From Escherichia coli (lineage in GTDB: Bacteria; Pseudomonadota; Gammaproteobacteria; Enterobacterales; Enterobacteriaceae): 64,000 nt of DNA. The translations under genes were made by a program, and so were the position numbers. Position 1 is the stretch's first letter; each line of letters starts with the position of its first letter. The notes under the pieces were generated by a model. That model was given only the letters and a program-made list of their open reading frames with translations. It made no database searches and was not told where the DNA came from. The stretch lies in assembly GCF_024700885.2 (NCBI RefSeq), contig NZ_CP117016.1, one strand, 5' to 3'. Positions 4,799-21,144 of this stretch are shown piece after piece.

Positions 4799-6091
4799 CT
4801 ATGTTTTTTTATTAGAATATTCGCCACTAAATAAATTATAATAAGTTGATTTTATTAGATATCTATCAGAATCTATATGGTCAGCACGAGTTGCATGCTC
4901 TAATGTTTCAAATGCCAGGGTATGTGCGGCTTCAGCAAATATCCCTGGCCAACCTTTACTCAGCATCGACAGTCCTTTAAGGACTCTTATCTGAATCTCC
5001 CTCATACTGGCACCATCGCGCGCGACAGGTGAGAAAAAGTCTTCCAGTAGATCGTTATTCTGAAGTGGTGCAACATGTACTGAAGGATATTTCACTTCTA
5101 TTTCATCAGATTTATTCTGCGCGTAAGTGGAAAGTATACGAACACCTCTGCCAATGACATCAATGGCGGTTCCAGGATCGTTCACTGCAGGGGAAAGGGC
5201 CCGGCAGGCTATTTCGGCCATGACGCTAAGACAAAATCGAGGATCCTGAGCAAATGAACGTGCATCCGAGACAATAATCGTCTCAAGTAAATCGGTGCTG
5301 ATTGACGACTCCTGGCCCTGACTCAGGTACAAAACTGGCATGGACGGATGTATGAAACTGCCTGGCTGCGCCACGAGGTATACATGACGGGGATCATTGG
5401 TCAGCAGCTTGCTAAGTTTCACCATATCAATATATTCAACATAGCCAATCTTCTTCGGATAAACTGCAACCGTTCCTTTCGGCTGTTCATTGTTCTCAAG
5501 CCATGGATATCCGCCGAGACAGGGATTTCTTGCTCTCGCAATAAATGTTTCGATGGCCGCCTGTTCTACTTGTGCCGTTGTCTCACCAACCCTCCCCAGA
5601 GAGGTCAAATGCTGTATCCAGCGAAGCAATGTGATGAGGATTAAGGCAATGACAACCAGTGTGACAATGAATAAAATGACTCTCCCCCTTTCTCCATAAG
5701 CTCCCATATTGAGGGCAATAATCCCTACCAGACTGAAGAGAAAAGAACCGATGAAGGTGGCCAGTACATTTTGTGTGGTGACGTCTTCAACAACTAAACG
5801 CGTAGCTCTGGGAGTCACATTAGTAGTGGCTGAACCGTAGGCTGTGACCATGATACTCAGCGAAAATGTGGTCACTGCCAGCATACTCGATGCCAGTATG
5901 TTCAGAATGTTATCGACTGCTTCCGCACCAACCTTCACGGAAACCGACTCAGGTATCATTGATTTAAAAAGAATTGATAAAAGGGCCGTTATTATCGCGA
6001 CAATTGCGAATAACGTTGCCCTGAACCATAGTTTTTTAATTGTCTGCTTCAGCATCCATTTCCAGCGTGAAATCATTCTGCATTCCCTCAT
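4799..6091 (-). CDS. Membrane protein, DUF2254-like; start codon uncertain
   Basis: Several N-terminal TM helices followed by a soluble domain; family assignment from memory. Confidence 0.5.
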   Translation of the reverse strand: MRECRMISRWKWMLKQTIKKLWFRATLFAIVAIITALLSILFKSMIPESVSVKVGAEAVDNILNILASSMLAVTTFSLSIMVTAYGSATTNVTPRATRLVVEDVTTQNVLATFIGSFLFSLVGIIALNMGAYGERGRVILFIVTLVVIALILITLLRWIQHLTSLGRVGETTAQVEQAAIETFIARARNPCLGGYPWLENNEQPKGTVAVYPKKIGYVEYIDMVKLSKLLTNDPRHVYLVAQPGSFIHPSMPVLYLSQGQESSISTDLLETIIVSDARSFAQDPRFCLSVMAEIACRALSPAVNDPGTAIDVIGRGVRILSTYAQNKSDEIEVKYPSVHVAPLQNNDLLEDFFSPVARDGASMREIQIRVLKGLSMLSKGWPGIFAEAAHTLAFETLEHATRADHIDSDRYLIKSTYYNLFSGEYSNKKT

Positions 6092-6138: not shown

Positions 6139-8142
6139 TTAACGAACCAGGTGCAGGAAGTGCAGATGTTTTTCGTACTGGTCCAGTATGTCATTAATCA
6201 GCTGTTCCTGGTTCCAGCCCATCACATCATAATTTTGACCGCCTTCTTTGAGATAAACCTCAGCGCGATAATATCGATGTTGTTCAGTCTGCTGCTCATC
6301 ATTATCCATTGCGGCGAGCGCGAAGGTCGGTGAGATATACCCGCGAAGCCTCACTTCATATATAAAATTCAGCTCGTTGCCCAAATCGACTTCAAGACGA
6401 ATACGATCGTCGACTGCATCACTAATGTGGCTTATCGTCCCCTGCTTGTTCAGTTCCTCCTGAACCAGCGTCATGGCGGGCTGGATAACGTCGTCCATAA
6501 AACGTTTCACAAGAGATCGCTTCGGCAGATACGCGATATTGCGTAACCTTCTCTGCCAAGGAATTGGGTTACGTGCAGCCGTAGGAGCAATTGTCGCCAT
6601 GCTCAGGCTTTCACGCTTGGTCAAATCCCGGCGCAAAGCTTTTAAAAGTCCGTATATAGATATTAGTAAGATCACTGAGAAGGGCAATGCACTCGCTATT
6701 GTCACCGTTTGCAGCGCACTTAGCCCTCCGGCAAGGAGAAGCGCAATTGCAACAATGCCCATGAGCGAGGCCCAGAATATTCGCTGCCAGACGGGTGTGT
6801 TTGCCACTCCACCTGATGCCAGAGTATCCACAACCATTGCCCCCGAATCAGCAGACGTTACAAAGAAGACGATGACCATCGCCATTGCAATGAATGACAG
6901 CACAGAAGAGAACGGGAAATGCTCCAGGAAATTAAACAGGGCCAGCGCCACATCCTGCTGAACAGTATTGGCGAGGTCTGTGGCCCCCTGGTTCATAATG
7001 AGATAGATCGCGCTGTTACCAAACACCGTCATCCACATTAGCGTAAAACCCGCGGGAACAAACAGCACGCCGGTGACAAACTCGCGAATGGTTCGCCCGC
7101 GGGAGACTCGTGCGATGAACATCCCCACAAACGGCGACCATGAAAGCCACCATCCCCAGTACAGTAATGTCCAGCCCCCCAGCCAGTTGCTCGACTTGGG
7201 CTCATACGCGTAAAGGTTGAACGTTTTACTCACCAGTTCCGAAAGATAACCGCCCGTATTTTCCACAAATGACTTCAGCAGAAGCACGGTTGGTCCCAGA
7301 CACAGGACCAGCGCCAGGAGCAACAAAGCCAGACCCAGATTGAGTTCAGACAGGATACGTATTCCCTTATCCAGACCGGACACCACTGAAATCGTCGCTA
7401 ACCCCGTGATGACCACGATCAGAATTACCTGCACCGTTTCATTGATGGGCACCCCGAAAAGATGGTTCAAACCGGCATTCACCTGCAAAACACCGTAACC
7501 CAGTGATGTCGCAACGCCAAAGACCGTGCCTATAACAGCGAAAATATCAACCGCATGTCCTACAGGTCCGTATATGCGATCGCCAATAATGGGATAGAGT
7601 GCGGAGCGCAGAGTTAAAGGCAGACCGTGACGGTAACTGAAGAACGCCAGAATCAGCGCCACAATGGCATAAATTGCCCATGCGTGCAGTCCCCAGTGGA
7701 AAAAGGTCAGACGCATTGCTTCCTTAGCTGCCGCAACGGTTTCTGGAGTGCCAACGGGTGGCGAAAGATAATGCATTACAGGTTCGGCAACGCCAAAGAA
7801 CATCAGGCCGATCCCCATCCCTGCCGAAAAAAGCATCGCAAACCAGGAGTGGTAGCTGAAATCAGGCTGCGCATGGTCCGGGCCCAGCTTGATATCACCG
7901 TAGCGTGAGAGTCCAAGGAACGTGACACTCAGTAAAATCAGGGCCACAGCAAGGATGTAGAACCAGCTGGCATTCGTGAAGATTTGTTGCTGAAGTAGTT
8001 TAAAATTTTTGTCGGCGACATCCGGGAATACGGCGGCAAAGGCGACAAGAAGGAAAATTAGCAAAGCAGATGTAAAGAATACCGCTTTGTTAATCTGACT
8101 TGTAGACTTCTTTGGGATTGTATCATTTTCACTCATAATCAT
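6139..8142 (-). CDS. BCCT-family transporter (BetT-like) with long cytoplasmic C-terminal tail
   Basis: BCCT signature WTLLYWGWWLSWSPFVGMFIARVSRGRTIREF and BetT-like length (667 aa). Confidence 0.8.
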   Translation of the reverse strand: MIMSENDTIPKKSTSQINKAVFFTSALLIFLLVAFAAVFPDVADKNFKLLQQQIFTNASWFYILAVALILLSVTFLGLSRYGDIKLGPDHAQPDFSYHSWFAMLFSAGMGIGLMFFGVAEPVMHYLSPPVGTPETVAAAKEAMRLTFFHWGLHAWAIYAIVALILAFFSYRHGLPLTLRSALYPIIGDRIYGPVGHAVDIFAVIGTVFGVATSLGYGVLQVNAGLNHLFGVPINETVQVILIVVITGLATISVVSGLDKGIRILSELNLGLALLLLALVLCLGPTVLLLKSFVENTGGYLSELVSKTFNLYAYEPKSSNWLGGWTLLYWGWWLSWSPFVGMFIARVSRGRTIREFVTGVLFVPAGFTLMWMTVFGNSAIYLIMNQGATDLANTVQQDVALALFNFLEHFPFSSVLSFIAMAMVIVFFVTSADSGAMVVDTLASGGVANTPVWQRIFWASLMGIVAIALLLAGGLSALQTVTIASALPFSVILLISIYGLLKALRRDLTKRESLSMATIAPTAARNPIPWQRRLRNIAYLPKRSLVKRFMDDVIQPAMTLVQEELNKQGTISHISDAVDDRIRLEVDLGNELNFIYEVRLRGYISPTFALAAMDNDEQQTEQHRYYRAEVYLKEGGQNYDVMGWNQEQLINDILDQYEKHLHFLHLVR

Positions 8143-8246
8143 TTATTCCATTAATTAAATTCGCACTGGATAGAAGGTACTACCTCTCACAAAGTAGCAA
8201 AGTTCAACTGGCTATGCGGCGTTAATCGGAATGCATGGTGGAATGT

Positions 8247-9493
8247 TGAGGTGTACTGGCAATAGCGGACACTACCATTTGTTCTTTTTTTAAGCAGCCA
8301 TCTGATGATATTTTTCCCTGAAGGCTGCCGGGGAGATATTCCCCAGACGAGAGTGACGACGCTGACGATTGTAGAAAATCTCAATGTATTCCCGTATTAC
8401 TGAGATGGCTTCATCCCGGTTATTAAAACGATAGTGGCTCAGGCTCTCATTTTTCAGCGTTCCCCAGAAGCTTTCCATCGGAGCGTTGTCGTAACAGTTA
8501 CCTTTACGCGACATTGATGTTTTCAGACCAAACTGCTCCTGTATGACACGGTAATCGTATGCGCAGTACTGTGAACCTCGATCAGAGTGGTGGATTAGCC
8601 CGGCAGGTGGGCGCTGGCTCCTGAGCGCCATAAACAGGGCTTTACCTGTCAGCTCTTTTGTCATGCGCTCTCCCATGGCGTAGCCGACAATTTCGCACGT
8701 ATAAACATCTTTGATGCCAGCGAGGTACAACCATCCCTCCTGTGTGGCAACATACGTCAGGTCCGCCACCCAGACCTGATTTGGTGCTGTAGGAGCGAAC
8801 GTCTGGTTCAGCAGATTTGGCGCAACTGGCAGATTGTGGTTCGAGTTCGTAGTCGCTCTGAACTTGCGTTTCTGCTTACAGCGTAGCCTTAGCTCCTTAC
8901 GAAGACGTGCCAGTCGGTCACGACCAACGATGATGCCATTCTCTGCCAGCTCCGTCTGGAGCTGCCGGGTTCCATATGTTTCGCGAGTGCGGATATGCGC
9001 CACCTTAATCTCCAGTTTTAGCCGCTCATCACTTTGTTTTCTGTCTGAGGGTTCATGCTGTACCCAGTTGTAATAACCGCTCCTGGATACACCAAATACC
9101 TGACACATCGCTTCAATGGGAAATTGTTGTCGCCATTGTTCGATTAACGCGTATTTTTCAGCGACTCCTGTGCAATTTAATATATCTCGCTCAAGGCGAG
9201 CTTCATTTAACGCCTTACGCAGTTGCAGAATTTCAGATTCCAGTTCAGCCACCGTGCGGGAACCAGGAGTACCGAGCCCTTTTCTGGCGGCGGTAACCCA
9301 TTGTCCTAAAGTGCCTTCAGGAAGAGATAATCGGGAAGCACCTTCACTGATCGAAAGTTGATTTTCAAGAACCGTTCTGACAGCTTCGGCTTTGAACTCT
9401 TTAGAGTAACGTTGGGTTTTTCTGCTCATTATTAGCTCCTTCTGATGCCATTCTATTTCAGGAAGGAGTGTCCGTTAAACTCAGGCTACCTCA
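8247..9493 (-). mobile_element. IS3-family insertion sequence (IS600-like), about 1.25 kb
   Basis: Imperfect terminal inverted repeats TGAGGT...CGGACACT at both ends flanking the transposase ORF. Confidence 0.7.
8290..9429 (-). CDS. IS3-family transposase, OrfA and OrfB fused in one 379-aa frame
   Basis: OrfA-like HTH and leucine zipper (LQLRKALNEARLERDIL) continuous with DDE OrfB (DLTYV, HSDRGSQY, GNCYDNAPMESFW). Confidence 0.85.
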   Translation of the reverse strand: MSRKTQRYSKEFKAEAVRTVLENQLSISEGASRLSLPEGTLGQWVTAARKGLGTPGSRTVAELESEILQLRKALNEARLERDILNCTGVAEKYALIEQWRQQFPIEAMCQVFGVSRSGYYNWVQHEPSDRKQSDERLKLEIKVAHIRTRETYGTRQLQTELAENGIIVGRDRLARLRKELRLRCKQKRKFRATTNSNHNLPVAPNLLNQTFAPTAPNQVWVADLTYVATQEGWLYLAGIKDVYTCEIVGYAMGERMTKELTGKALFMALRSQRPPAGLIHHSDRGSQYCAYDYRVIQEQFGLKTSMSRKGNCYDNAPMESFWGTLKNESLSHYRFNNRDEAISVIREYIEIFYNRQRRHSRLGNISPAAFREKYHQMAA

Positions 9494-9575
9494 TTGGTTC
9501 CCACTACTTATTTGGTGGACACCACTTTGTCTAATTCGTCAGATTCTGACCAGACGGTTCAGGCTGTACGCTTAC
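9494..9575. repeat. 82-bp IS66-family terminal fragment (solo end), identical to 17521-17602
   Basis: Ends in revcomp GTAAGCGTACAGC; identical to the left end of the IS66 copy at 15315-17602. Confidence 0.75.
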
Positions 9576-9609
9576 AAACAACTAGTGGAAATACTTGTAC
9601 TTTATAATT

Positions 9610-10554
9610 TCAAGGGTACGGGTCCGCTTCGTTTGATTTGCGTGTTTTTAACAATTTTAAAACCCAGACATACTGTTCCGGATGTGGCCCCACCAAAATT
9701 TCCACTGTTTTGTTCATTTGTCGGGCAATCATTTTATTGTCCGCGCTGGCAATGCAAGCATCCATTGGTGGCCGAATTTCAATAGTCAGGAGATGTTTTT
9801 TTTCATCATAAACCGGGAAAAGTGGTATAATCATAGCCTGACTGATGTTCATCAGACGTCCAATGATTGGTAATGTCGCTTTATAGGTCGCAAAAAAATC
9901 AGCAAATTCACTGTATTCAGGACCATGATCCTGATCTGGGAGGTAATATCCCCAGTATCCCTGGCGTACTGACTGAATAAATGGTTTTATCCCATCCTCC
10001 CGGGCATGTAAGCGCCCCCCGAATTTACGCCGTACTGAATTCCAGACATAATCAATCACTGGATTTCGTTGCTGATGAAACATGGCGGCCATTTTTTTTC
10101 CCTGAGCTGCCAGCAACATTGCAGGAATATCCACGCTCCAGCCATGGGGAACCAGAAAAATCACATTTCTATTATTGTGTCGAATTTCCTCAAGAATTTC
10201 GAGGCCTTTCCAGAACACTCGTTTCTGGAACTTTTCCGGACCACGAATTGCCAGTTCTGCCATCATCACTATGGATTGCAATGCTGTGGCAAACATTTTG
10301 TCGACAATTATTTCCCGTTCTGTATCACTCTTTTCTGGGAAACAAAGCGATAAATTAATCGTCGCCCTGCGACGAGCTTTTTTGCTCAATCTGCCCACCC
10401 AACGCCCTATTTTTGCCAAGACAGGATCTCTGAATGAAGGGGGAAACATTGAAATACCTGCAATCATTCCCAAAAGGAACCATGTAGACCAGTAAACAGG
10501 GGAAAGGTAATTTTTCTTAAATTCAGGAATAAACTCAGATTTATATTTTTTCAT
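9610..10554 (-). CDS. Lipid A secondary acyltransferase, LpxM/MsbB family (msbB2-like paralog)
   Basis: Lauroyl/myristoyl acyltransferase motifs (FLVPHGWSVD, YLPDQDHGPE); virK fragment immediately upstream as in shf-virK-msbB2 modules. Confidence 0.8.
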   Translation of the reverse strand: MKKYKSEFIPEFKKNYLSPVYWSTWFLLGMIAGISMFPPSFRDPVLAKIGRWVGRLSKKARRRATINLSLCFPEKSDTEREIIVDKMFATALQSIVMMAELAIRGPEKFQKRVFWKGLEILEEIRHNNRNVIFLVPHGWSVDIPAMLLAAQGKKMAAMFHQQRNPVIDYVWNSVRRKFGGRLHAREDGIKPFIQSVRQGYWGYYLPDQDHGPEYSEFADFFATYKATLPIIGRLMNISQAMIIPLFPVYDEKKHLLTIEIRPPMDACIASADNKMIARQMNKTVEILVGPHPEQYVWVLKLLKTRKSNEADPYP

Positions 10555-10618
10555 TATTTAGTGCGAATGCCTCTACCAAAATTATCATTACTGTTTTATT
10601 CAGAGAATACATCAAACC

Positions 10619-11233
10619 TTAATTTAAATTCTGATGTTCTGAGTGTACAGGATATGCATCCAAAGAGCGGATAGTAGTTTCATGGATATAATCCAGCAAA
10701 GCGTATCGTTTTCGGTACTCAGAGCGTTTTTTACTGGCTATATCGCTTAGCGGCTTTCGAATCACCTGGGTTGGTAATCTGTACCAGTCACCACAGGTTT
10801 TTCCTGCTACAGACTCCCAGAAATCACTATAGACCGCAACAAAGGTTTTGCGTTTCTGATACCAGTATCTCAATTGCCGGAAAACATGACTGTGCTCACT
10901 GACTGCCAGACACTCAGAGATATTGCAAGCTTTCATCAACGCACAAAATGCTTCAAAAATAATCCGTTTTGGGAAAATCCCATAACAGGCCCGGGTTGCG
11001 CACCGAATAACATCAGGTCCGGTATTTTTAGGGGCTCCCTGTAATCCGCCAATAAAAGCAATGTGTCCATTTTGAGTCAGAATGACTGAAAATGTTAACC
11101 GGGCAATAACTGTTTTATTGTAAAACAATGACAACATCAACTCTCCTTCCCGGTCAAAACCACTGGGAGAACACTGGATATCAAAATTCTCTCCATCTTT
11201 CCCGATGAATTGGACTAATGATACCGATTTTTG
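10619..11233 (-). pseudogene. virK: virK-like (DUF535) gene, C-terminal part only, cut by IS1
   Basis: Open frame runs from the IS1 boundary (...FIGKDGENFDIQCSP...) to the stop at 10619; N-terminal half absent. Confidence 0.55.
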
Positions 11234-11288
11234 GGTAATGCTGCCAACTTACTGATTTAGTGTATGATGGTGATTTTAAGGTGCTTGC

Positions 11289-11564
11289 GTGGCTTCCATT
11301 TCCATCAGATGTCCTTCCTGCTCCGCTACTGAAGGCGTGGTGCGTAACGGCAAAAGCACTGCCGGACATCAGCGCTATCTCTGCTCTCATTGCCGTAAAA
11401 CATGGCAACTACAGTTCACTTACACCGCCTCTCAGCCCGGTACGCACCAGAAAATCATTGATATGGCCATGAATGGCGTCGGATGTCGCGCCAGTGCACG
11501 CATTATGGGCGTTGGCCTCAACACGGTTTTACGTCACTTAAAAAACTCAGGTCGCAGTCGGTAA
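11289..11564 (+). CDS. insA: IS1 InsA
   Basis: [40 protein letters not shown]... Confidence 0.9.
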
Positions 11565-11986
11565 CCTCGCGCATACAACCGGGCAGTGATGTGATTGTCT
11601 GCGCTGAAATGGACGAACAGTGGGGCTACGTCGGTGCTAAATCACGTCAGCGCTGGCTGTTTTACGCGTATGACAGGATACGGAGGACGGTTGTGGCGCA
11701 CGTCTTCGGTGAACGCACTCTGGCCACACTGGAGCGTCTTCTGAGCCTGCTGTCGGCCTTTGAGGTCGTGGTATAGATGACGGATGGCTGGCCGCTGTAT
11801 GAATCACGCCTGAAGGGAAAGCTGCACGTTATCAGCAAGCGTTACACTCAGCGCATTGAGCGACATAATCTGAATCTGAGACAACATCTGGCAAGGCTGG
11901 GACGGAAGTCACTGTCGTTCTCAAAATCGGTGGAGCTGCATGACAAGGTCATCGGGCATTATCTGAACATAAAACACTATCAGTAA
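11483..11986 (+). pseudogene. insB: IS1 InsB frame with premature stop (TAG at 11774-11776)
   Basis: Copy 2 reads ...VVIWMTDGW (TGG); copy 1 reads ...VVV(stop)MTDGW (TAG). Confidence 0.85.
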
Positions 11987-12071
11987 GTTGGAGTCATTAC
12001 CTCCTCCCGAACTCAAAGCTATCATACAGATAATTACTGGTTAACCCTATATAGGGCATTTTAAAGTGTTG

Positions 12072-12408
12072 TGATCTTACCCAGCAATAGTGGACACGCG
12101 GCTAAGTGAGTAAACTCTCAGTCAGAGGTGACTCACAAGACAAAACAGTTTCAACCAGTAAAAAAACGTAAACACCATTCGCATGAATTTCGTAGTTAAG
12201 ATCTGAAGCTTGCAGAATGCATCGGTGTTACTGCCGGAGTCCGTGAACTTAGTCTGCATGAATCACCACAGCTTTACATCTGTCGCAGTAAACAGCAAAA
12301 TCAGCAAACTTACTTAATTATATCGAGTGCGATTACAATCGCTGGCGATGGTACAGTTGGTGTGGCGGTCTCAGTCCGGAACAATTTGAAAATCAGAATC
12401 TCACTTAA
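12072..12408 (+). mobile_element. IS3 remnant with large internal deletion (left end and orfA 5' joined to orfB 3' end; right IR missing)
   Basis: TGATCTTACCCAGCAATAGTGGACACGCGGCTAAGTGAGTAAACTCTCAGTCAGAGGTGACTCACA then ...[33 protein letters not shown] tail. Confidence 0.7.
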
Positions 12409-12746
12409 AACGGCATCCATTTTACAAAAGATGGCCGTCTGTGTATTTATAATGAATACCTTCTACATGTTTAGAGTGCATAATCCACGACAAGGCGATA
12501 TCCTAAAAATTAGCTAGCAGGCAACTTTGATGGCATAGATAATGTTTTTAGTAAAAAAGAGTTGACTTAATATAATACAGCCTCTTCCTACATAAGAAGG
12601 AATGTGCTCACAAAAAAAAACATTAGTCTGCTTCCTGTTCTTACAATAATCAGTATTATGTATTTTATTTATATAGCAAAATATGCTTGTTACACCTGTC
12701 ATAATTAGGCATGGTAAAATTATTGACTGAACCCTGGGGGAGAAAG

Positions 12747-13004
12747 ATGCACAGTGATTATTATAATATGGTTTTTGGTGAAAAATTGGCCAATATTTTA
12801 TATGAAGCTAACTCTCAATTTTTTTACGAGAGAAATGTCATAGAAGAGGCAGTCAACGCTTTATTCTGTGAGCGTGAAATAATAAACAACAAGAACATAA
12901 TAAAGAAGCTGATGTTCTTTTTGTCAGATGTTAATCACACCAAGAAAGATGTTGTTCAGAGCGCACTTAATATTATCATTGACATTACATCAGGTGATAT
13001 TTGA
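12747..13004 (+). CDS. Hypothetical protein (85 aa), AT-rich
   Basis: ORF with GGGGGAG RBS; no recognisable family. Confidence 0.3.
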   Translation: MHSDYYNMVFGEKLANILYEANSQFFYERNVIEEAVNALFCEREIINNKNIIKKLMFFLSDVNHTKKDVVQSALNIIIDITSGDI

Positions 13005-13264
13005 GATTTTACATAAAAGATAATCTCTCAAGGAGTCTTATCTGAAAACGAAATATATAGTCCCTCTCGTTTTGTAATATCGATTGGCTTTGTTGAATCG
13101 GTTACGTACCCCGGAGCCGGTCATATTTTCAGGTAATACACACGCTTTCAGACATTTCGGCTTTCGTCATTTTGGTATCATGGGCATAGCTTCTGCTACC
13201 TGACCATCATAATCACGCAGCTTCAGTGAAGCAGTGACCACCTGTTTAACCCGGTGTATCGTTA

Positions 13265-13465
13265 TGATCTTATCCAGCAATAATGGACACGCGGCTAAGT
13301 GAACCGCCCCGGGTTTCCTGGAGAGTGTTTTATCTGTGAACTCAGGCTGCCAGATCATCGTTTCCGATGGAAGCATAATAAGCTTTTTCTGCTTCTGCCG
13401 GTGGGATATGGCCCTGCCTTTCCAGCAATCGTCGATTGTTATACCAGTCCACCCACGTGAGTGTG
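13265..13465 (-). mobile_element. IS3-family right-end remnant (transposase C-terminus plus terminal IR)
   Basis: Minus strand encodes ...QYDELTTLTWVDWYNNRRLLERQGHIPPAEAEKAYYA then IR ending ...TGTCCATTATTGCTGGATAAGATCA. Confidence 0.65.
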
Positions 13466-13754
13466 GTCAGCTCATCATACTGACACGTGCATTACCCCTA
13501 CCGCGATAATGCAACCGTACAATATAGGGCGTTTCCTAAACGCAGCCCTCATCACTCCAATCCAACAAGACACAGCATTTTTGATCACGAAGAAAGACAA
13601 ATAATTTCCGTAAATGTTTCCGTTGTTACAAATAACAACAGTGTTTTACATTTCTTTGGCCTCAGGCCCGCGCATGTTGCCATTCGATGTCATTTTCCTG
13701 ACTCGTTTCTTCTTTATGGTGTAGTGTGATCTTCACTTTATGGATGCTAACAAT

Positions 13755-15113
13755 ATGAAAAGAAAAATTATTCCCGTGCTAATCGGTTGTACGCTCTCTT
13801 TCTCTGCCCTGGCGGCACAACCTACGGCTGAGCGCTATGTCGTCAGTTTTCCAGAAGGCACGCACGTGAACTACGCCGGCGCATTTGCCAGTGCATTCCC
13901 GAACGGCCTTCCGGTTGGGATAGGTTCTGGCCTGCTGTTCACCGGTAAACAGGGCGATGCCCTGACATTCGCAACCATTACCGATCGCGGTCCGAACGCG
14001 GATTCACCGAAAGAGGGGAAAAACGAAACTAAAATTTTCGTTACGCCAGATTTCGCGCCGCTGCTGATGACGATTCGTGTACAAAACGGCAAAGCGGAGG
14101 CCATCGATCCCCGTCCTCTGCATGACGATAAAGGCGCGATCAACGGTCTGCCGCTGGCAAGCGACGTGATTGGCTCCACCAATGAAGTGGCCTTCAGCGA
14201 CACGTTACATAGACTGAAGGGGGATAATCGCGGGCTGGATACGGAAGGGATCACTCCGGATGGTAAAGGAGGTTACTGGCTGTGCGATGAGTATGGCCCG
14301 TTCCTGATTAACATCGACAGTAAAGGGAAAATCCTGGCAATCCACGGTCCGCAGGCGGCGGAAGAGGAAAAAGCGATTGCGGGCGGTTTGCCAAATATCC
14401 TCAAATGGCGTCAGGCGAACCGCGGCTTTGAAGGCCTCACCCGTATGCCGGACGGGCGTATTATTGTCGCCGTGCAAAGTACGCTGGATATCGACGCTAA
14501 GAGCAAGAAAAAGGCGCTGTTTACGCGTCTGGTGAGCTTCGATCCGGCAAGCGGAAAAACCGCGATGTACGGTTATCCCATCGACAGCGCGGCCTACAGC
14601 AAAAACAGCGACGCTAAAATCGGAGACATCGTGGCGCTCGATAACCAGCACATCCTGCTGATCGAACAGGGAAGAGATAAAAACAACAGAATGCGTAACC
14701 TGATTTACGAGGTCGATCTCAATAAGGCGAGCGACCTGTCAGGCTTCGACAAGCCGGGTGAGTATCCGGAGTTTGATGATGAGAAAACCCTGTCACAGCG
14801 CGGCATTACCCTTGCGCAGAAAACGCAGGTTGTTGATCTGCGCTCCTTGGGCTGGCAGCAGGAGAAGGCTGAAGGGTTGGCGCTGATCGACAGCAAAACG
14901 CTGGCGGTGGCGAACGATAACGACTTTGGCGTGAAGGTGGCGATGCAACATCCGGTCGAGGGCAAGACATTCAAGGATTATCGGGTGAACGCGGAAGGAA
15001 AGCTGACGCTTGACGACAAGCAGGTTGAAACGACCCTCAGAGTGAAGCCACTGGAGAAACCGGAGTCTGACAGTGAACTGTGGATTGTGACGCTGCCGGA
15101 AGCGTTGAAATAA
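13755..15113 (+). CDS. Secreted phytase-like / esterase-like beta-propeller protein (452 aa)
   Basis: Signal peptide (MKRKIIPVLIGCTLSFSALAAQP); repeated D-x-G/beta-strand blocks; family assignment from memory. Confidence 0.5.
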   Translation: MKRKIIPVLIGCTLSFSALAAQPTAERYVVSFPEGTHVNYAGAFASAFPNGLPVGIGSGLLFTGKQGDALTFATITDRGPNADSPKEGKNETKIFVTPDFAPLLMTIRVQNGKAEAIDPRPLHDDKGAINGLPLASDVIGSTNEVAFSDTLHRLKGDNRGLDTEGITPDGKGGYWLCDEYGPFLINIDSKGKILAIHGPQAAEEEKAIAGGLPNILKWRQANRGFEGLTRMPDGRIIVAVQSTLDIDAKSKKKALFTRLVSFDPASGKTAMYGYPIDSAAYSKNSDAKIGDIVALDNQHILLIEQGRDKNNRMRNLIYEVDLNKASDLSGFDKPGEYPEFDDEKTLSQRGITLAQKTQVVDLRSLGWQQEKAEGLALIDSKTLAVANDNDFGVKVAMQHPVEGKTFKDYRVNAEGKLTLDDKQVETTLRVKPLEKPESDSELWIVTLPEALK

Positions 15114-19517: not shown

Positions 19518-21144
19518 GGTTAAATCTCCGTATGGTTCATACGGAATAGCCACGTCGTAAAAAATGCGCAGAGTCCCTGAAGTGACCTCCGGCAGGACAC
19601 TGTCTCAGGCACTCTGTGATAACCCGAACGGTCGTCTCCGGACTGACGGTTGAATTTTCAGCGTCGTTTTTTAATGTAAAAAACCGGTTACGGGTAAGGC
19701 TGTGAGGAGGGAGTGATGGTGATACGCAAAAAGAAGTGCAGGGATTGTGGAAACGCGATTACTCATAATACAGTGTGTTGCCCGTATTGTGGTTCTGTCG
19801 ACCCCTTCGGCTACTACCGGAATACAGACCGTATCGTTACCATACTGCTGGCGCTGATTATTGTGGTCCTGCTGACTACTGTCAGCGTCAGTGTGTGTAT
19901 ACTGTGTAGCTGGTGAGATAACGGTTCATGTATCCCCTGAGCTGACAGTGTACCGTGTATATTAAGCGTAACCGACAGGTTCTCCTTCATACCATATTAA
20001 ATTTTCCAGGGATTGCCGCTGCCTTATTTCGTCTCATACAGGAAAACTCATCTGGGTTTCTGACAAATACGCGAAACTCACAGCCCCTCAATATCAACCA
20101 CACGTTGTAAGCCGGTAATACCTGAAAATCAGCCTATTACCGCCCACGCCTCCGGCACCATTCCCTTTTGATTTCGAATTCTTTGTTGTCGCTATACCGC
20201 TTAATGTTCCCGGTCCTCCGGTGCAGATAACACCGGAGTCATCGTAGCGCTGCTTCAATATTCAGGTGACATATTTCCAGACGGAAGCCGGCGCGCGATC
20301 GTAAAGTTTGTTCATTGTCAGTTCTGCCAGCCGGTTGTCAACGGCAGAGTTAAAGGCTTCCAGCTCCGCAAGGGTAAGTTTATAACGCGTGTGGGAATTC
20401 ACTTTTCCCGCGTCTCCTGACGTATTACGGGCTGCCACTTACCTGGTGTCCCGCAATACAGCCTTAGTGTTCCGTTATCGGGGATCCGGACGCACCGCAA
20501 CAACCGGGGAAGTATTTCTGGTTTAGAGCATTGTCAAGAGGGATTTCTCAGCCCCTCACTCACCGCTCAGTCTCAGGGCAGGAGCATTAATACGCTCAGT
20601 TCATGTCTTATACAGGAATGGGCACAGGGGGAGCTGGCGTGTCACTGCTGATTTTACGCATCAGCGTTCATGTATCTGCACTCTGATACATGAACGATTC
20701 ACAGCGCTCTGTTACCGGAGAGATTTACTCTCTTAGCTTACTCTGGCAAATCCTTTACGTTACTCTCTGATGACTTCTTATATTTATAATACCAATCAGA
20801 CAGCCTTATCCCATCGGTGATATCAGTCTCCTCCTCGCCAGGAACGGGCTGACTCACTGTAACCACCTCCGAAAACAACTCTGCAATTATCAGAACGCCT
20901 GCTTCTCTCCCTGTCCTCACGAAAACTATCCCCTCTTTATCGCGCGTGCGTGCGGAAGCATCTTTTCGCAACAACCACCCGGTATACCGGTACGGCTCAG
21001 CCACCGCAACCTCCCCGTTTATCTCCTGGCGGTCACATTCCCGATTATTTTTTACGTTTCTCCCCGGTTGTTATGCCGGTGAAGGTGGCGCGCTGTTTTC
21101 ATGACCACACCGGCTGGTTTAACAACATCCGGAGGAACATTCTC

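Follow-up and report, generated by a model that had tools for sequence, protein, structure and literature searches.

Small connector proteins set the choice that enterobacteria make between capsule, curli and biofilm, and acid resistance. Within the YmgB/AriR family of such regulators, the chromosomal AriR branch is the only one that has been studied. Overexpression of YmgB (AriR) activates the Rcs phosphorelay, with an increase in colanic acid and a decrease in curli via RprA (PMC3509220). [quoted passage not shown] YmgB also binds SpoT and raises ppGpp; the R74G substitution abolishes SpoT binding but spares both Rcs activation and dimerisation (PMC10704370).

The gene described here, for which we use the working name W, was found in a 64-kb window (the whole stretch of DNA that was analysed, 64,000 nucleotides) that represents a chromosomal island of E. 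coli and matches strain MLI114 with 100% identity over 12 kb. W encodes an 85-aa protein of the YmgB/AriR family; its coding sequence, called from an uninterrupted open reading frame together with a family match, occupies positions 12747–13004 of the + strand, from the ATG at 12747 to the TGA stop codon at 13002–13004. A previous sequence-only reading of this DNA had described an 85-codon ORF with a good ribosome-binding site in a very AT-rich pocket, and each of these elements was found: the ORF is intact on the + strand, a Shine-Dalgarno-like GGGGGAG is read at 12736–12742 (+ strand), ending 4 nt 5' of the ATG, and the GC content over 12450–13050 is 0.31–0.33, compared to 0.45–0.57 in the flanks. 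An ATG-initiated ORF of at least 85 codons appeared in 83 of 5,000 dinucleotide shuffles of the 650-nt pocket (1.7%); by itself, the length of the ORF is therefore mildly unusual and constitutes weak evidence of a gene. W was counted as real because of its homology and not because of its length.

The same reading had regarded the ORF as an orphan of no recognisable family, possibly spurious, and had proposed a homology search as a check. This search did return homologs, and both suggestions had to be abandoned. The W protein matches Pfam family PF10798 (YmgB/AriR) with 27.3 bits, where the gathering threshold is 22.3, and its residues 28–84 align to positions 2–59 of the 59-position profile. 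In a pairwise BLASTP comparison it displays 30% identity to K-12 AriR (E 3e-8), and a sequence search of the PDB matched the crystallised YmgB fragment 2OXL. When 23 sequences from five clades are aligned, ten columns are invariant, all of which are kept in W (L14, E28, A35, N48, K49, I51, L55, D68, L74 and T81), and a profile search with the family alignment retrieved the AriR clades at an E value of 1e-31. The protein is acidic (pI 5.0) and predicted to be all-helical. Its AlphaFold2 model has a mean pLDDT of 81.9, approximately 90 over residues 30–60; in Foldseek, the only significant PDB structural match of this model was 2oxl_A (probability 1.00, RMSD 0.9 Å over 57 residues, target-normalised TM 0.86), an agreement that is partly circular, as AriR sequences were present in the AlphaFold input alignment. 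By these comparisons W is a divergent, mobile member of the PF10798 YmgB/AriR family and a real gene. RefSeq already labels it "biofilm development regulator YmgB/AriR family protein", and a literature search by accession and name found no paper mentioning the W paralog; the gene is thus annotated automatically, yet unstudied. The further suggestion that the ORF could be a small regulator arriving with mobile DNA agrees with both its family and its context, its function being proposed below by analogy.

The start codon of W varies among RefSeq records. The reading frame extends 5' to an ATG at 12711, which would yield 97 codons, and the records use the ATG at 12711 (97 aa, WP_000239862.1), a TTG at 12723 (93 aa, WP_223349491.1) or the ATG at 12747 (85 aa), so that the longer models fall within 12711–13004 of the window; the 85-aa call for this gene was made by PGAP on pP393F10IncF. 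Neither of the alternative starts, ATG 12711 and TTG 12723, is preceded by a Shine-Dalgarno sequence comparable to that of ATG 12747. In orthologs with 87% protein identity, a 1-nt deletion in the G/A run GGGGGAGAAAG places ATG 12711 out of frame and leaves the 85-codon ORF intact, so that neither of the two longer models is in frame there. Because the deletion in the orthologs breaks the 12711 frame, and because the sole Shine-Dalgarno sequence is located at 12747, the latter is the conserved start. This is the start that had been picked from the sequence alone, and it is preferable to those of RefSeq, whose 97- and 93-aa models are probably over-extended at the N-terminus. Correction of these two models is a practical outcome of this analysis.

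Comparison with orthologs of 87–89% identity, found on IncFII-type plasmids beside Tn3 and IS1 fragments, delimited the unit to which W belongs, since the sequence common to all is limited to 12496–13069. This core module (+ strand) measures 574 bp, with 251 nt before the ORF and 65 nt after it. Homology to the orthologs begins exactly at 12496, and the conserved non-coding upstream region (12496–12746, + strand), presumed to hold the promoter and the 5' UTR, displays 92% identity to the orthologs when a 28-nt indel is not counted. Homology stops at 13069, the end of the conserved 3' flank (13005–13069, + strand). A consensus scan of the upstream region yielded no sigma-70 promoter on the + strand; a scan of 13005–13069 detected no terminator, and as this segment folds no better than its shuffles (z = -0.41) it holds no convincing intrinsic terminator. 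An RNA element was also considered and rejected, Rfam having returned only a chance-level ctRNA match (E 0.77). A 19-nt direct repeat with 79% identity has one copy 5' of the ORF (12558–12576, AGAGTTGACTTAATATAAT) and the other within it (12958–12976, AGAGCGCACTTAATATTAT), and is probably a chance occurrence in AT-rich DNA; a perfect TATAAT, without a good -35 element, is located at the 5' copy (12573–12578).

The flanks of the module are made of insertion sequence remnants. Upstream lies an internally deleted IS3 (12072–12410, + strand), in which the left end and the 5' part are fused to a transposase C-terminal fragment; positions 12072–12310 are ~89% identical to IS3 copies, and RefSeq places the IS3 transposase C-terminal fragment at ~12311–12409. 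Downstream, a second IS3-type end (13261–13302) and an IS3-family transposase C-terminal fragment (13342–13476) occupy 13261–13476 of the - strand, as judged from sequence and annotation; the 42-nt end is a second copy, 93% identical to 12068–12109. The deleted IS3 and the IS3-family end fragment had both been noticed in the sequence-only reading. To them we add an IS5/IS1182 transposase fragment downstream of W (approximately 13130–13260, - strand), taken from the RefSeq annotation of a 100%-identical chromosome. Further upstream, an IS1 (11234–12001, + strand; inverted repeats located, supported by annotation) forms a variable left junction, with virK'/lpxM in the window and fecI-ykiE or other genes elsewhere. 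The local order is BCCT transporter, IS3, lpxM, truncated virK, IS1, IS3 remnant, W, IS5 and IS3 remnants, a phytase-like esterase, IS66, and CP4-type island genes with Ag43.

A scarred block of 1.4 kb (12072–13478), comprising the IS3 remnant, W and the IS5 and IS3 remnants, recurs with ~99% identity in unrelated backbones. On chromosomes it is found beside fecIRABCDE-ykiE-IS1 or, as in the window, beside virK'-lpxM-IS1; on IncF plasmids it is found beside a copy of evgAS, a fimbrial gene, or an MBL-hydrolase/HTH/ester-cyclase cluster. No neighbouring gene was constant beside W in the contexts examined, nor was ycgZ, ymgA, bluR/bluF or a BluR-type promoter encountered there. On this sequence comparison, W is a solitary gene-plus-upstream cassette without a fixed partner gene.

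Several of the neighbours were considered as possible partners. The window carries a second, island-borne lpxM (9610–10554, - strand; msbB2-type lipid A myristoyltransferase) and a virK/DUF535 gene cut off by the IS1 (10619–11233, - strand), which are chromosomal remnants of a shf-capU-virK-msbB2 type cluster known from virulence plasmids. An ancestral link between W and this cluster was rejected, as the junction between them is the IS1 and fecI-ykiE is found there in other strains; the presence of a VirK gene near the P0064 paralog described below as well is a co-occurrence that we record as a curiosity. On the other side, between the IS fragments and IS66, a 457-aa ORF (13740–15113, + strand) with an N-terminal signal-peptide-like sequence matches PF13449, "esterase-like activity of phytase" (E 3e-43), and accompanies W on chromosomes and not on plasmids. 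The possibility that W and this esterase form an ancestral pair, mirrored by P0064 and its 445-aa neighbour, was discarded: the latter is an MFS transporter, to which the esterase shows no relationship in BLASTP (E 1.3). An IS1 composite transposon on the IncF plasmids was likewise rejected, the two IS1 copies being without matching 9-bp target duplications.

A 751-bp segment around W was present in 1,774 of 5,426 complete E. coli genomes, nearly always on the chromosome and with at least 99% identity, and in 94 plasmid records (85 from Escherichia, 8 from Salmonella and 1 from Shigella). In a large protein collection, the exact W protein was encoded on at least 1,000 contigs. Among complete E. 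coli genomes, one in three thus carries the supposed orphan, O104:H4-type strains among them, and it is also found on IncF plasmids in Salmonella and Shigella. As the canonical ariR operon was found in 4,951 of the same 5,426 genomes, at least ~1,300 carriers of W have both proteins. In a rare allele of W, seen on 3 contigs, the entire upstream region and codons 1–7 have given way to a fragment of a Tn3-family transposase.

To find relatives of W, 1.84 billion representative proteins were searched exhaustively with its sequence alone. Only two of the matches were truly diverged, all others being fragments or frameshifted calls of the W gene itself. Thus P0036 and P0052, taken at first as diverged homologs, proved to be frameshifted versions of it, and P0028 was rejected as a common truncated form, being a cluster representative only, on 3 contigs. 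Further YmgB/AriR clades in E. coli, beyond the result of this search, were found by the later profile search. The closer relative, P0064 (86 aa, 46% identity to W), is encoded on E. coli IncF plasmids (e.g. pP393F10IncF, NZ_CP076275.1), between a polysaccharide deacetylase and an MFS transporter and near genes for an SMR protein, VirK/YbjX, PmrD and a GT4 glycosyltransferase; on NZ_CP076275.1 and NZ_CP076277.1 (~6500–13800) it lies inside a plasmid cluster of envelope-related genes. A copy of W with 89% identity is found on the P0064 plasmid too, 3' of a chaperone-usher fimbrial operon. The second relative, P0068 (84 aa, 36% identity), is chromosomal and stands beside genes for an EAL protein and a BluR/MlrA-like regulator, ycgX, PmrD and icd, a setting that is AriR-locus-like. 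PmrD, another two-component connector, is thus encoded beside the chromosomal P0068-type ymgB gene and in the vicinity of P0064.

The length and the frame of the W ORF are kept in the 87–89% orthologs and in the 46% paralog. The ORFs of W and the 87% orthologs differ at 15 nucleotides, of which 3.5 count as synonymous and 11.5 as non-synonymous, which gives a dN/dS of ~0.75; these are too few changes to tell from neutrality, and this comparison provides no significant indication of purifying selection. One amino acid difference may bear on function. At the position of AriR R74, on the surface of helix 3, W and two 87% orthologs have Gln, whereas all 20 of the other 20 aligned sequences have Arg. 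Within the 23-sequence alignment, the Arg74-to-Gln change is thus confined to the W clade.

The upstream region was also compared between paralogs. Conservation between the W and P0064 modules is highest in non-coding DNA: 12578–12620 displays 81% identity over 43 nt, against ~60% in the ORF. Within this block lies an inverted repeat, TTCCTACA-TA-AGAAGGAA (12585–12602), which is invariant in the 87–89% orthologs and resembles the binding site of EvgA, the inverted repeat TTCYTACA-N2-TGTARGAA. To validate this consensus it was checked on 35 kb of K-12 DNA, in which 0.16–0.27 matches were expected by chance: all six of the six intergenic matches were located directly upstream of evgA/emrK, frc, yfdX (two sites), safA-ydeO and ydeP. 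A weight matrix was then built from only these six K-12 sites, located with this consensus. Both evgA/emrK and safA-ydeO are EvgA targets. EvgA regulation of yfdX, the yfdWUVE operon (of which frc is the first gene) and ydeP has been reported (PMC3720670), and EvgA-bound inverted repeats upstream of yfdX and yfdWUVE are cited in the same paper (PMC3720670).

In the 64-kb window, 12585–12602 is the sole match to TTCYTACANNTGTARGAA with two mismatches or fewer, where 0.07 were expected. It lies 145–162 nt from the ATG, and the K-12 sites span 112–269 nt. Its score is 9.8 bits, compared to 16–25 bits for the real K-12 sites in a leave-one-out analysis; the score is low because both mismatches affect the TGTA core, in which the K-12 sites show no variation. 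At the equivalent place in the P0064 module the sequence is TTCCTACA-CA-TGCAGGAA, which scores 16.7 bits and is within the range of real sites. Two additional EvgA-like sites were detected upstream of W. One of them, at 12638–12655, contains the perfect half-site TTCTTACA, scores 9.8 bits and is specific to the lineage of the window; the other, TTGTTACA-CC-TGTCATAA at 12687–12704, is with 13.8 bits the best of the 64-kb window, and is located within a 28-nt segment missing from the 87% orthologs. Three of the six window sites with at least 9.5 bits thus fall in the 251 nt upstream of W, a number that was reached in none of 20,000 dinucleotide shuffles. All of the W sites, at 9.8–13.8 bits, nonetheless score below every real K-12 site.

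As a control, AriR-type promoters were scanned and displayed no EvgA-like sites. In ~330 kb of other DNA, the only other strong sites outside the training set were the evgA-promoter box of a plasmid evgAS copy (17.6 bits), an ortholog of one of the training sites, and a single site within a gene on NZ_CP019074.1. The latter, TTCTGACAACAGTAAGAT (4821–4838, 16.3 bits), lies inside the MBL-fold hydrolase gene of a plasmid that carries W and was counted as background. A complete evgS-evgA copy, ~96% identical to the chromosomal locus and encoding an EvgA identical at 202 of 205 positions, is found on the IncFIB plasmid NZ_CP018207.1 (243–4833); it has its own EvgA box, its emrK side is cut by an IS1, and it adjoins the W block. 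Plasmids do not usually carry a second copy of an acid-sensing two-component system. The evgAS genes beside W on pMRSN346647_113.1 were considered as a functional unit with it, and this was rejected, as they are a captured 96% chromosomal copy, joined by IS1 and missing from other W plasmids. Taken together, the motif cluster makes direct EvgA control of W a computational lead, which we consider possible, at clearly less than even probability.

We read W as a functional, horizontally spread AriR/YmgB paralog that would serve as an Rcs-modulating cytoplasmic connector without the SpoT branch, and that is perhaps controlled by EvgA; by analogy with AriR, we hold this reading with slightly better than even confidence. 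According to it, W would be expressed as a small acidic three-helix cytoplasmic protein acting by protein-protein contact, and would be neither an enzyme nor a toxin. By analogy with AriR, it would most likely bind the cytoplasmic part of the Rcs phosphorelay on the RcsC histidine-kinase side, and this contact would switch the capsule, curli and biofilm programme of the host along with its acid-stress programme. It moves as a self-contained 574-bp module, free of the YcgZ/YmgA partners and of BluR/BluF control. W probably does not trigger ppGpp accumulation, because its clade has lost the Arg that AriR needs for SpoT binding, and the acid-sensing EvgS/EvgA system may switch it on, given the EvgA-box-like sites in its upstream region. 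A number of observations speak against this reading. The scans found no sigma-70 promoter or terminator; the dN/dS is ~0.75, albeit from only 15 substitutions; the EvgA-like sites are weaker than every real K-12 site; and the AriR complex includes YcgZ and YmgA, neither of which W has beside it. W is also located amid IS debris in very AT-rich DNA, and such DNA is often silenced by H-NS in E. coli.

One alternative casts W as a decaying passenger: a ymgB-like gene that once functioned and is now caught between IS scars, silent or unselected, and intact only because its block has spread recently. Its main support comes from the dN/dS value obtained with the 87% orthologs; the ~99% identity of block 12072–13478 across chromosomes and unrelated plasmids does indicate recent spread, the promoter and terminator scans were negative, and a Tn3-truncated variant and frameshifted calls exist. 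The truncated form, however, occurs on 3 contigs only, the frameshifts affect homopolymers and may reflect errors of sequencing, and at least 1,000 contigs carry the ORF intact. The 87% orthologs and the 46% paralog have preserved its length, its frame and all invariant residues of the family, and conservation extends to the upstream region, including the best-conserved block between the paralogs. On balance we regard decay as unlikely. W could also be active in the opposite sense, as an antagonist that forms mixed dimers or complexes with AriR, YmgA or YcgZ, or occupies RcsC unproductively, and so damps signalling from the Ymg proteins to Rcs. AriR does dimerise and bind YcgZ and YmgA, at least ~1,300 carriers have both W and AriR, and the most changed part of W is the third helix, the partner-binding surface of AriR, the core helices being conserved. 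An identity of 30% is nevertheless too low for heterodimerisation to be assumed, and we find antagonism highly doubtful.

Two further explanations would place W outside of connector signalling altogether. The sequence-only reading had suggested a small toxin, and a toxin or toxin-antitoxin component delivered by an IS would be compatible with the small size and mobile context of W, with the toxin-antitoxin pairs found nearby on some plasmids, and with the rise in ppGpp upon AriR overexpression. These nearby pairs are complete by themselves, however, and the 574-bp module holds one gene with no conserved adjacent partner ORF. Pfam, PADLOC and PHROGs gave no credible toxin or defence match (the only PADLOC match, to a type II restriction enzyme model, was weak, with E 0.0086 and 13 bits), the residue required for the ppGpp effect is lost in W, and the protein is an acidic all-helical member of a regulator family, so that the suggestion found no support and its probability is next to negligible. 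W might instead be a Hha/YmoA-like partner of H-NS that tunes the silencing of AT-rich island DNA. Modulators of this type are often carried on islands and plasmids, one is encoded in the window itself, and the original YmgB structure paper reportedly noted a structural likeness to Hha. Yet W had no Hha-family Pfam match at E values up to 1, no Hha chain was among the best 50 of its 64 Foldseek matches with E up to 10, and its pI is 5.0; we consider this role most improbable. The Hha/YmoA-family nucleoid-associated regulator gene of the window is located at 20262–20438 (- strand), among CP4-type genes encoding zinc-ribbon proteins, an inovirus Gp2-family protein and Ag43.

Four modest additions result: the start codon is corrected, the gene is recognised as a solitary cassette of 574 bp, its clade alone has lost the SpoT-binding Arg, and an EvgA input is possible. 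W would represent a natural separation-of-function variant, in which the core is kept and the SpoT-binding arginine is missing. If the EvgA lead holds, a link between acid sensing and Rcs would be present in some strains and absent in others. A bolder version of the same idea is that W is a mobile connector cassette of ~0.6 kb, with which plasmids and islands rewire host two-component signalling from EvgS/EvgA acid sensing to the Rcs-controlled envelope and capsule, deliberately uncoupled from SpoT/ppGpp by the change of Arg74 to Gln. We think this quite unlikely; if true, the cassette would be the first case of a two-component connector, equipped with an input logic of its own, that spreads by horizontal transfer.

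Compared to AriR of K-12 (YmgB, b1166), W belongs to the same Pfam family, has a similar length (85 vs 88 aa) and acidity, and shares the predicted three-helix core, including the NNKNII motif. The two differ in their setting: ariR is the third gene of ycgZ-ymgA-ariR-ymgC, beside bluR/bluF, whereas W is solitary and resides in DNA of 31% GC on IS-scarred islands and IncF plasmids. P0064, the closest diverged relative, resembles W in being plasmid-borne and solitary and in sharing the upstream block with its EvgA-box-like repeat; unlike W, it keeps Arg74, and its EvgA-like site is nearer to the consensus (16.7 bits vs 9.8 in W). Outside of the family, a parallel is offered by SafA (B1500), another small protein, in K-12, with an EvgA box 112–129 nt upstream of its start codon. 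SafA, a membrane protein acting on PhoQ, is an EvgA-induced connector from EvgS/EvgA to PhoQ/PhoP, and as such offers a conceptual precedent for a connector that EvgA would induce between two-component systems.
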